Both the position numbers and the translations under genes were made by a program. The notes under the pieces are model-generated. The model saw nothing but the letters and a program-made list of their open reading frames with translations. It was not told the origin of the DNA and ran no database searches. From the sequence record PQ819470.1: a stretch of DNA of 64,000 nucleotides. One strand, 5' to 3'. Below, piece by piece: positions 28,575 to 29,460 of the stretch (positions within the stretch are counted from its first letter, which is position 1; every line of letters begins with the position of its first letter). This stretch comes from Escherichia phage ev_rybdy3.

Positions 28575-28904
28575 ATGTTAGATTTGAGTAAAGTGGCCCC
28601 GCCCACTGAAGAGATTACAAAATCCAAGGTGATGCAACAGTTTTATCATCGTGATATGCTTGGTCGCTTTATCAAGAATCGTGATGTTGTTGCTTGGTCT
28701 ATTGGTAATCAGGGATATCTGTTGAAGGTTCTTCAGGTTACAGGTTCAACTGCTAAGCGGGTTAAGGTGTATGACCCTGAAATGGGGCGTTCTAAGTCAG
28801 TAGACCCACAGAACTGCATCGTAATTACCCAGCAGGTAATGGATAATATTGCACGTAACGTTGCTAACTCAGTTGAACTTGATGGAGAAAACCCAAATGC
28901 ATAA
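28575..28904 (+). CDS. hypothetical protein
   Basis: track ORF. Confidence 0.5.
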   Translation: MLDLSKVAPPTEEITKSKVMQQFYHRDMLGRFIKNRDVVAWSIGNQGYLLKVLQVTGSTAKRVKVYDPEMGRSKSVDPQNCIVITQQVMDNIARNVANSVELDGENPNA

Positions 28905-29460
28905 GAATGTTTTTGATTTACCTGAGATCGGTCGTGACAGTTATAGCATGTTAGACCGGTCCGACCTATCAATCTCTCGCCTTGAAACAATGCAAGGTAT
29001 GATTAGTGGAAACAGCCTAGAACACATCCTGAGCTGCTTACAAGCTAACATGGAACTCTTGCATATCAAAGCTAAAAACTACCACTGGAACGTCTCTGGT
29101 GCAGGATTTCAGGGTGTTCATGGTATGTTTGATGAGCTGGAAGATTACGCACGACAGGTAGGAGATCGTATTGCTGAGCGTATGCGATACCACTGCGTTA
29201 AGGTGGATGCTACAGCGGCTAACTACCTCTCCCATGCCTGGTTCTCAGAGGGGAATGCTGATCTAGATATGGACGGTATGCTCTCTGATATGTGCATGAC
29301 CTTGATGTGTATTATTGAGAAGATGGATGAGTTTGATGGTGATTTAGCCACCTACCCTGTCGATCAGAGTATGCTTCAAGAAATTAATGAAGGTCTTGGC
29401 AAGTATTGCTACTTCGTCAAGAGCAACATGTCCCATTCAAGTGGTGATGTGTCTTACTAA
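28897..29460 (+). CDS. Dps-like ferritin-fold protein
   Basis: KAKNYHWNVSGAGFQGVHGMFDE...DRIAERM closely resembles Dps ferroxidase region. Confidence 0.6.
   Translation: MHKNVFDLPEIGRDSYSMLDRSDLSISRLETMQGMISGNSLEHILSCLQANMELLHIKAKNYHWNVSGAGFQGVHGMFDELEDYARQVGDRIAERMRYHCVKVDATAANYLSHAWFSEGNADLDMDGMLSDMCMTLMCIIEKMDEFDGDLATYPVDQSMLQEINEGLGKYCYFVKSNMSHSSGDVSY

Follow-up and report, generated by a model that had tools for sequence, protein, structure and literature searches.

A Dps-family gene with a conserved predicted ferroxidase centre in the nucleotide-metabolism cluster of phiEco32-like phages

A Dps homologue is common to all sequenced phages of the C3 morphotype, and the one encoded by SU10 (CDS67) has been detected by mass spectrometry (PMC4281155); a homologue was noted again for Privateer (PMC7881722). 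For the DPS-like genes of the gut 'Gratiaviridae' phages, a role in reducing the toxicity of iron and ROS in infected cells has been proposed, and the idea that a phage Dps limits oxidative damage is already in print (PMC8008677). The closest described protein is gp67 of phiEco32 (YP_001671812), which RefSeq names 'DNA binding protein' with the note 'member of the Dps family'. The 64,000-nucleotide stretch of Escherichia phage ev_rybdy3 DNA analysed here (PQ819470.1, henceforth the window) is of Kuravirus type and encodes the same protein, 100% identical in amino acid sequence to phiEco32 gp67, at the same position and with the same neighbours. The Dps call is therefore correct and already known, since the phiEco32 record labels gp67 a member of that family, and as a discovery the gene matters little. 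Our searches of the literature found no biochemical, genetic or functional study of any phage Dps. What we add is a check of ligands, fold and selection, a case against the 'DNA-binding' label, and the description of a conserved module with gp68; an intact active site kept in every long-headed podophage lineage examined makes the protein a reasonable experimental target.

Between positions 28000 and 30500 the window is 100% identical at the DNA level to Escherichia phage ev_rybdy8 and 92-98% identical to many phiEco32-like phages. The gene and the elements within and around it are located as follows.

28897-29460, plus strand: Dps-family gene, orthologue of phiEco32 gp67 (open reading frame and translation, Pfam, PHROG, PDB, AlphaFold2, Foldseek)
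28883-28888, plus strand: Shine-Dalgarno-like GGAGAA before the Dps ATG, with GGAG at 28883-28886 (read from the sequence)
28897-29028, plus strand: N-terminal extension, residues 1-44 (charge, model, conservation)
29467-29495, plus strand: hairpin with an 11-bp stem, 7 nt past the Dps stop (scan and fold)

The reading frame is intact, with an ATG start and 187 codons followed by a stop, and its product of 187 residues has a mass of 21.2 kDa, a pI of 4.7 (4.71) and a net charge of -15. Its start overlaps the stop of the upstream gene, gp68, by 8 nt (ATGCATAA). This overlap, which is identical in phiEco32, in ECBP2 and in the metagenomic relative L007, suggests translational coupling of Dps with the upstream gene. 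A longer frame initiated by TTG exists from 28849; the annotated relatives all begin at the ATG, and the aligned homologues all start at the matching Met, mostly as MH(N/K). We also considered an internal start that would skip the N-terminal extension and rejected it, because the 21.2 kDa predicted for SU10 CDS67 corresponds to the full-length frame and because neither M32 nor M35 is preceded by a Shine-Dalgarno-like sequence.

The phage sigma promoter motif TAATGTAT does not occur near the Dps gene, and its total in the window is not above chance; a scan for sigma-70-like promoters gave a count below the shuffle expectation. Downstream of the gene, a 66-nt stretch containing the hairpin folds at -18.5 kcal/mol, and a weak T-run follows. 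Both arms of the hairpin are identical in the distant relative ECBP2, although the synonymous sites of the gene are saturated in that comparison, whereas the loop differs in sequence and length (CTAACCC versus TTTGTTTAA). The hairpin may be a weak or terminator-like element, its T-run being poor, or an RNA-stabilising 3' structure. Database names for the protein vary: other records of it read 'ferric iron binding protein', 'hypothetical protein' or 'integrase', the last of which, found in many GenBank records (IME267, XT73, 172-1 and EcoN5 among them) and in a UniRef entry, looks like a propagated mis-annotation.

The first-pass annotation had read the gene as encoding a Dps-like ferritin and had proposed a search with family HMMs. 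In that search the protein scored 31.1 bits with PF00210 (Ferritin), above the gathering score of 24.5 (E 2.6e-7), in a match that covers residues 55-108 only, and it matched PHROG 3636 across the full profile (E 2.6e-55). A phmmer search of PDB sequences returned 36 sequences, essentially all of them Dps, Dps-like or neutrophil-activating protein (best E 2.7e-9), including Mycobacterium smegmatis Dps2, Bacillus subtilis MrgA, B. anthracis Dlp-2, B. brevis Dps, Helicobacter pylori NAP and Listeria innocua Dps, in alignments that span residues 51-176. We built an AlphaFold2 monomer model with 14 homologues (mean pLDDT 79.8, core 81-97), in which helices are predicted at residues 41-65, 72-98, 125-150 and 154-176, together with a short BC helix at 107-112 in the crossover loop. 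Such a short helix in the BC crossover loop sets Dps apart from other ferritin-like bundles. When the model was compared with the PDB by Foldseek, the best 50 matches were all Dps or Dps-like, with a target-normalised TM score of up to 0.92, and the predicted structure superposed on solved Dps proteins with an rmsd of 1.2-1.6 Å across ~140 residues. The Pfam match being partial, it is the PDB alignments, the predicted structure and the PHROG profile that establish the relationship over the full length. As judged by sequence and model, then, the gene encodes a true Dps-type mini-ferritin of a phiEco32-like phage.

Homologues are numerous. There are 136 phage records that match at E<=1e-5, Dps relatives are encoded at 371 or more IMG/VR loci, many BFVD entries have a Dps-like fold, and the gene is kept across Gordonclarkvirinae, Grimontviridae and Lahexavirus. 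Of 1.84 billion cluster representatives searched with a profile of the phage clade, 3418 matched at E<=1e-3 and only 7 at E<=1e-30, which sets the phage proteins apart as a small branch of their own within a very large family. One candidate, P0032 (1156 residues, with 20 stretches matching the Dps profile), was discarded as a false positive, since it is a translated tandem repeat of ~60 residues. Against NF006975, the NCBIfam equivalog model for enterobacterial Dps, the phage protein scores 34.5 bits where the cut-off is 114. With a score so far below the cut-off, it is not an orthologue of the host Dps and may have diverged in function; by its sequence, the gene is not a recent capture from the host.

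We located the ferroxidase centre by alignment of the phage protein with homologues from phages and cells and with E. coli Dps, in a sequence identical to that of PDB 1F30. The codons concerned are these.

29083-29178, plus strand: ferroxidase-centre codons (alignment to E. coli Dps)
29083-85, plus strand: H63, aligned with H51 of E. coli Dps
directly following, plus strand: W64, aligned with W52
29119-21, plus strand: H75, aligned with H63
29131-33, plus strand: D79, aligned with D67
29164-66, plus strand: D90, aligned with D78
29176-78, plus strand: E94, aligned with E82

H63, H75, D90 and E94 are invariant in all 17 aligned sequences, and W64 and D79 are conserved in at least 90%. Among 14 homologues of the phage clade, which share 48-83% identity, all six residues are invariant. 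Two segments, KAKNYHWNVSGAGFQGVHGMFDE...DRIAERM, had been singled out at first sight as a close match to the ferroxidase-site region of Dps; they correspond to residues 58-80 and 90-96 and indeed hold the aligned ligands. Thus the ligands that the first-pass annotation had proposed to check are present and invariant, and the ferritin fold is predicted as well. Its reading of the gene stands on the family HMM, on the fold and on the retention of every ferroxidase ligand.

The three-fold 'ferritin-like' iron pores of Dps are lined by acidic residues at the end of helix C and the start of helix D. D145, D148, D150 and the near-invariant D156 of the phage protein lie in the segment that matches this pore region, where the alignment to the DDD of E. 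coli Dps is not residue-exact. Helix C carries a D-M-C-M motif whose D131 and M132 do not vary within the phage clade.

The core is preceded by the extension of 44 residues, which carries a net charge of -3 (1 K, 3 R, 4 D and 3 E); the C-terminal 10 residues carry -1, and a Lys/Arg-rich tail, looked for at both termini of the Kuravirus protein, is found at neither. E. coli-type Dps needs a basic tail to bind DNA, and several Dps proteins that are tail-less or have an immobilised tail do not bind; others that lack such a tail nevertheless bind, by way of their surface or of bridging cations, and the Kuravirus protein may therefore still bind DNA. Since the Kuravirus protein is acidic and has no basic tail, the 'DNA-binding' label is without support for it. 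On this sequence evidence the name is probably misleading for the Kuravirus version, and it appears to have been inherited from the name of the family. The suggestion in the first-pass annotation that the protein might manipulate nucleoid state is weakened likewise, as is DNA coating, by the lack of a basic tail.

Although most of the extension is modelled with low confidence (pLDDT 39-61), a helix is predicted at residues 24-37, and it bears a conserved S-x-x-R-[LM]-[ED]-x-M motif in which R28 is invariant and M32 nearly so. Comparison with the orthologue in the Suseptimavirus ECBP2 gives the core (residues 45-177) a pN of 0.076 and a pS of 0.81 and the first 44 residues a pN of 0.265, with a pS of 0.78 given for the saturated synonymous sites. 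These are raw proportions rather than a distance-corrected dN/dS because the synonymous sites are saturated. The low pN of the core against a saturated pS indicates strong purifying selection on the core and weaker constraint on the extension. In composition, the phage protein stands out for an unusually high content of Met (15) and Cys (5), against 4 and 0 in E. coli Dps.

The genes that flank Dps and could be assigned are the following.

27353-27886, plus strand: dCTP deaminase (Pfam DCD, 3.7e-34; synteny)
28575-28904, plus strand: gp68 homologue of 109 residues (phrog_10984, no Pfam match)
30086-30361, plus strand: thioredoxin (Pfam Thioredoxin, 2.1e-13), which directly follows Dps in L007
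30377-31033, plus strand: ThyX, flavin-dependent thymidylate synthase (Pfam Thy1, 1.4e-43)

In full, the order is dCTP deaminase, three paralogues of ~67 residues, gp68, Dps, two hydrophobic paralogues of ~60 residues, a small ORF, thioredoxin and ThyX. The gene had been noted at the outset as lying with replication genes, and this holds: Dps shares its strand with the genes for primase/helicase, dCTP deaminase, thioredoxin, ThyX and DNA polymerase in a replication and nucleotide-metabolism cluster. [quoted passage not shown]

Small genes fill the intervals. The three tandem paralogues between dCTP deaminase and gp68 (27887-28084, 28084-28293 and 28293-28502, plus strand; 65-69 residues, phrog_4939) each end in a V-x-Y-Y-like C-terminus, and their stops and starts abut or overlap. 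The two tandem hydrophobic paralogues directly 3' of Dps (29521-29700 and 29710-29895, plus strand; phrog_9296) are probably membrane proteins, and phiEco32 annotates only one ORF of this family there. Upstream of the replication genes, 16066-20709 (plus strand) holds a ligase cluster of phiEco32 type, with a COOH-NH2 ligase (PF14395), an amidoligase (PF12224) and a sub-threshold glutamine-amidotransferase-like match (PF13522).

Part of this arrangement is conserved at a distance. In L007, where the identity of Dps is only 53%, the genes for dCTP deaminase, gp68, Dps, thioredoxin and ThyX run in this same order, with NrdD nearby, and phages 7-11, P59 and LAh_9 have the module in a rearranged form. 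In 7-11, Dps directly follows ThyX and the gp68 homologue lies 1.3 kb off; in P59 and LAh_9 (Dps identity 31-41%), as in L007, the gp68 homologue is directly upstream of Dps. The gp68 loci are 28575-28904 (plus strand) in the window, 3139-3423 in L004, 3109-3462 in L005 and 3679-4008 in L007, and in Kuravirus, Privateervirus and Lahexavirus gp68 is the neighbour of Dps on its upstream side, to which Dps appears to be coupled in translation. In L007, gp68 is the better conserved of the two, at 84% identity versus 53% for Dps. None of the 78 other IMG/VR loci with Dps relatives encodes a gp68 homologue, and the pairing is therefore lineage-specific synteny rather than evidence of a general partner. 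The AlphaFold2 model of gp68 has a pLDDT of 58, and its Foldseek matches to Tudor, PWWP and KOW folds are weak (best E 2.3e-3, TM 0.4-0.5); this low-confidence model suggests a small SH3/Tudor/KOW-like beta-barrel followed by a helix. A search of PDB sequences with the gp68 profile returned nothing significant.

How might the phage use such a protein? Our preferred reading, to which we assign a probability of roughly 65%, is that gp67 is a mini-ferritin made in the middle (replication) phase that detoxifies iron and peroxide during phage DNA synthesis. The analysis shows the family, the predicted fold, the conserved ligands, the purifying selection and the genomic context; beyond these, we infer dodecamer formation, ferroxidase activity and a benefit to the phage along the following lines. 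Like solved Dps proteins, gp67 would assemble into a hollow shell of twelve subunits. Two Fe(II) would bind at every two-fold interface, liganded by H63 and H75 from one subunit together with D90 and E94 from its partner and close to D79 and W64; the Fe(II) would be oxidised, preferentially by H2O2, and the ferric mineral stored within the shell. Both Fenton reactants would in this way be removed while redox-active dNTP synthesis and DNA replication proceed, the redox-active module being thioredoxin and ThyX here and including an anaerobic ribonucleotide reductase in relatives. Reduced ThyX flavin reacts with O2 to give H2O2. That Dps lies beside thioredoxin and the flavoenzyme ThyX hints at a small unit of redox protection inside the dNTP module, in which Dps and these enzymes would be functionally linked. 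Because the protein is acidic and its extension is not basic, protection is more likely to be chemical, through iron and peroxide, than by coating of DNA. Two observations go beyond this role: a plain mini-ferritin does not account for the conservation of the N-terminal motif and of the gp68 partner, and a purely cytoplasmic one does not predict the presence of the Privateer homologue in CsCl-purified virions.

Other readings of the same data have to be set against the mini-ferritin role. Dodecamers of gp67 could coat replicating DNA or compact the host nucleoid, with iron chemistry secondary, as the 'DNA binding protein' annotation in RefSeq and PHROG 3636 would have it and as E. coli Dps does when it coats and condenses DNA; the homologues of 7-11 and Proteus phages, with short basic N-termini of net +2 to +3, lean the same way. 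We consider this unlikely for the Kuravirus protein, given its net charge of -15, its pI of 4.7, an N-terminus of net -3 and the lack of a Lys/Arg-rich tail, and our literature searches turned up no binding data for a phage Dps. Management of iron for its own sake is a more doubtful proposal, according to which Dps would buffer or deliver iron for dNTP enzymes (the Fe-S cluster of NrdG, the di-iron site of class I ribonucleotide reductase) or starve host systems of it. Dps is always found within the dNTP-synthesis module, and it lies near NrdD, NrdG or ATP-cone genes in LAh_9, P59 and L007, but this linkage may be mere inherited synteny. Moreover, no ribonucleotide reductase was matched by Pfam in ten further larger ORFs of the window, none is annotated near the gene in the stretches of phiEco32 and ev_rybdy8 consulted, and Dps proteins are not known to donate iron to specific enzymes. 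As for a decaying or functionless passenger gene of host origin, all that speaks for it is that phages generally carry many accessory genes. It is effectively refuted by the selection and conservation data: the ORF is intact, core pN is 0.076 against a pS of 0.81, the catalytic residues are all invariant, the gene persists in Gordonclarkvirinae, Grimontviridae and Lahexavirus, its product is detected by mass spectrometry, and identity to E. coli Dps is 20%.

The Privateer result raises the question of a place in the virion. Dps might be associated with the prolate C3 capsid, inside or on it, in the manner of an encapsulin cargo, with the N-terminal extension or gp68 as targeting device, and would then protect packaged DNA or enter the next host. 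This is improbable in our estimation, although the Privateer homologue was found by mass spectrometry in particles purified through CsCl step and equilibrium gradients (PMC7881722), the gene is kept in all C3-morphotype podophages examined (PMC4281155), and other phage proteins in BFVD pair a Dps-like fold with the name 'prohead protease' as candidate fusions. Against it, the gene is of the middle class and sits in a nucleotide-metabolism cluster far from the structural genes, and a dodecamer made dense by its iron might band together with phage in CsCl. The SU10 sample in which Dps was identified had been concentrated by PEG only and also contained DNA polymerase and thioredoxin (PMC4281155), and the cryo-EM and mass-spectrometry study of the SU10 virion gives gp20-24 as the internal proteins in a text that contains neither 'gp67' nor 'DNA-binding' (PMC9509320). 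A bolder form, which draws on the Privateer virion data, the conservation of Dps and gp68 in the C3 lineages examined and the candidate 'prohead protease' proteins of BFVD, would make the C3 Dps a particle-associated mini-ferritin recruited through its lineage-specific N-terminus or gp68, a counterpart of encapsulin cargo in an HK97-fold shell. We regard it as a long shot; were it true, Dps would guard the tightly packed genome of a very long capsid or be delivered with that genome.

The BFVD proteins just mentioned come from uncultured phages, are 290-763 residues long and have further regions besides the Dps-like fold; three bear the name 'prohead protease', and the matches include A0A6J7XDU5, A0A6J7WPK9 and A0A6J7WIS1. 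If real, such fusions would put a Dps domain inside procapsids. In a further set of long multidomain Dps proteins, P0096, P0127 and P0088, taken from the matches among cluster representatives, no protease domain was found; they match Ferritin only, with DUF6321 in addition in P0127.

Set beside cellular Dps proteins of solved structure (2Z90, M. smegmatis Dps2; 2CHP, B. subtilis MrgA; 1JIG, B. anthracis Dlp-2; 2D5K, S. aureus; 1F30, E. coli), the phage protein has the same predicted bundle with the BC helix, the same ligands of two His with Asp and Glu, the adjacent Trp and a core of similar length, at an identity of 20-27% (20% to E. coli Dps). It differs from them in its non-basic extension of 44 residues with a conserved motif of its own, and in charge: its pI is 4.7 versus 5.7 for E. 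coli Dps, whose first 22 residues are net +3 where the 44-residue N-terminus of the phage protein is net -3. It also differs in setting, being the gene of a lytic phage expressed in the replication phase, whereas cellular Dps belongs to the starvation response. Nearer at hand, the Dps proteins of Salmonella phage 7-11, Proteus phages Privateer and P59, Cronobacter phage GAP52 and Aeromonas phages LAh_6 and LAh_9 fall in the same clade, with 31-45% identity and the same ligands. These Dps proteins of other C3 podophages are shorter (146-156 residues) and share the nucleotide-metabolism context, and the loci of 7-11, P59 and LAh_9 have a gp68 homologue, as in Kuravirus. Their N-termini vary, those of 7-11 and P59 being short and basic (MLGARPKRP and MARDIIRSRPSLRR, net +2 to +3) and that of LAh_9 net neutral. 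More remote are the Dps proteins of the gut 'Gratiaviridae' and of Lactobacillus phages, the latter recovered as structural matches to the phage protein: they are distant in sequence (16-23% identity) and belong to other phage lineages, with anaerobic hosts.
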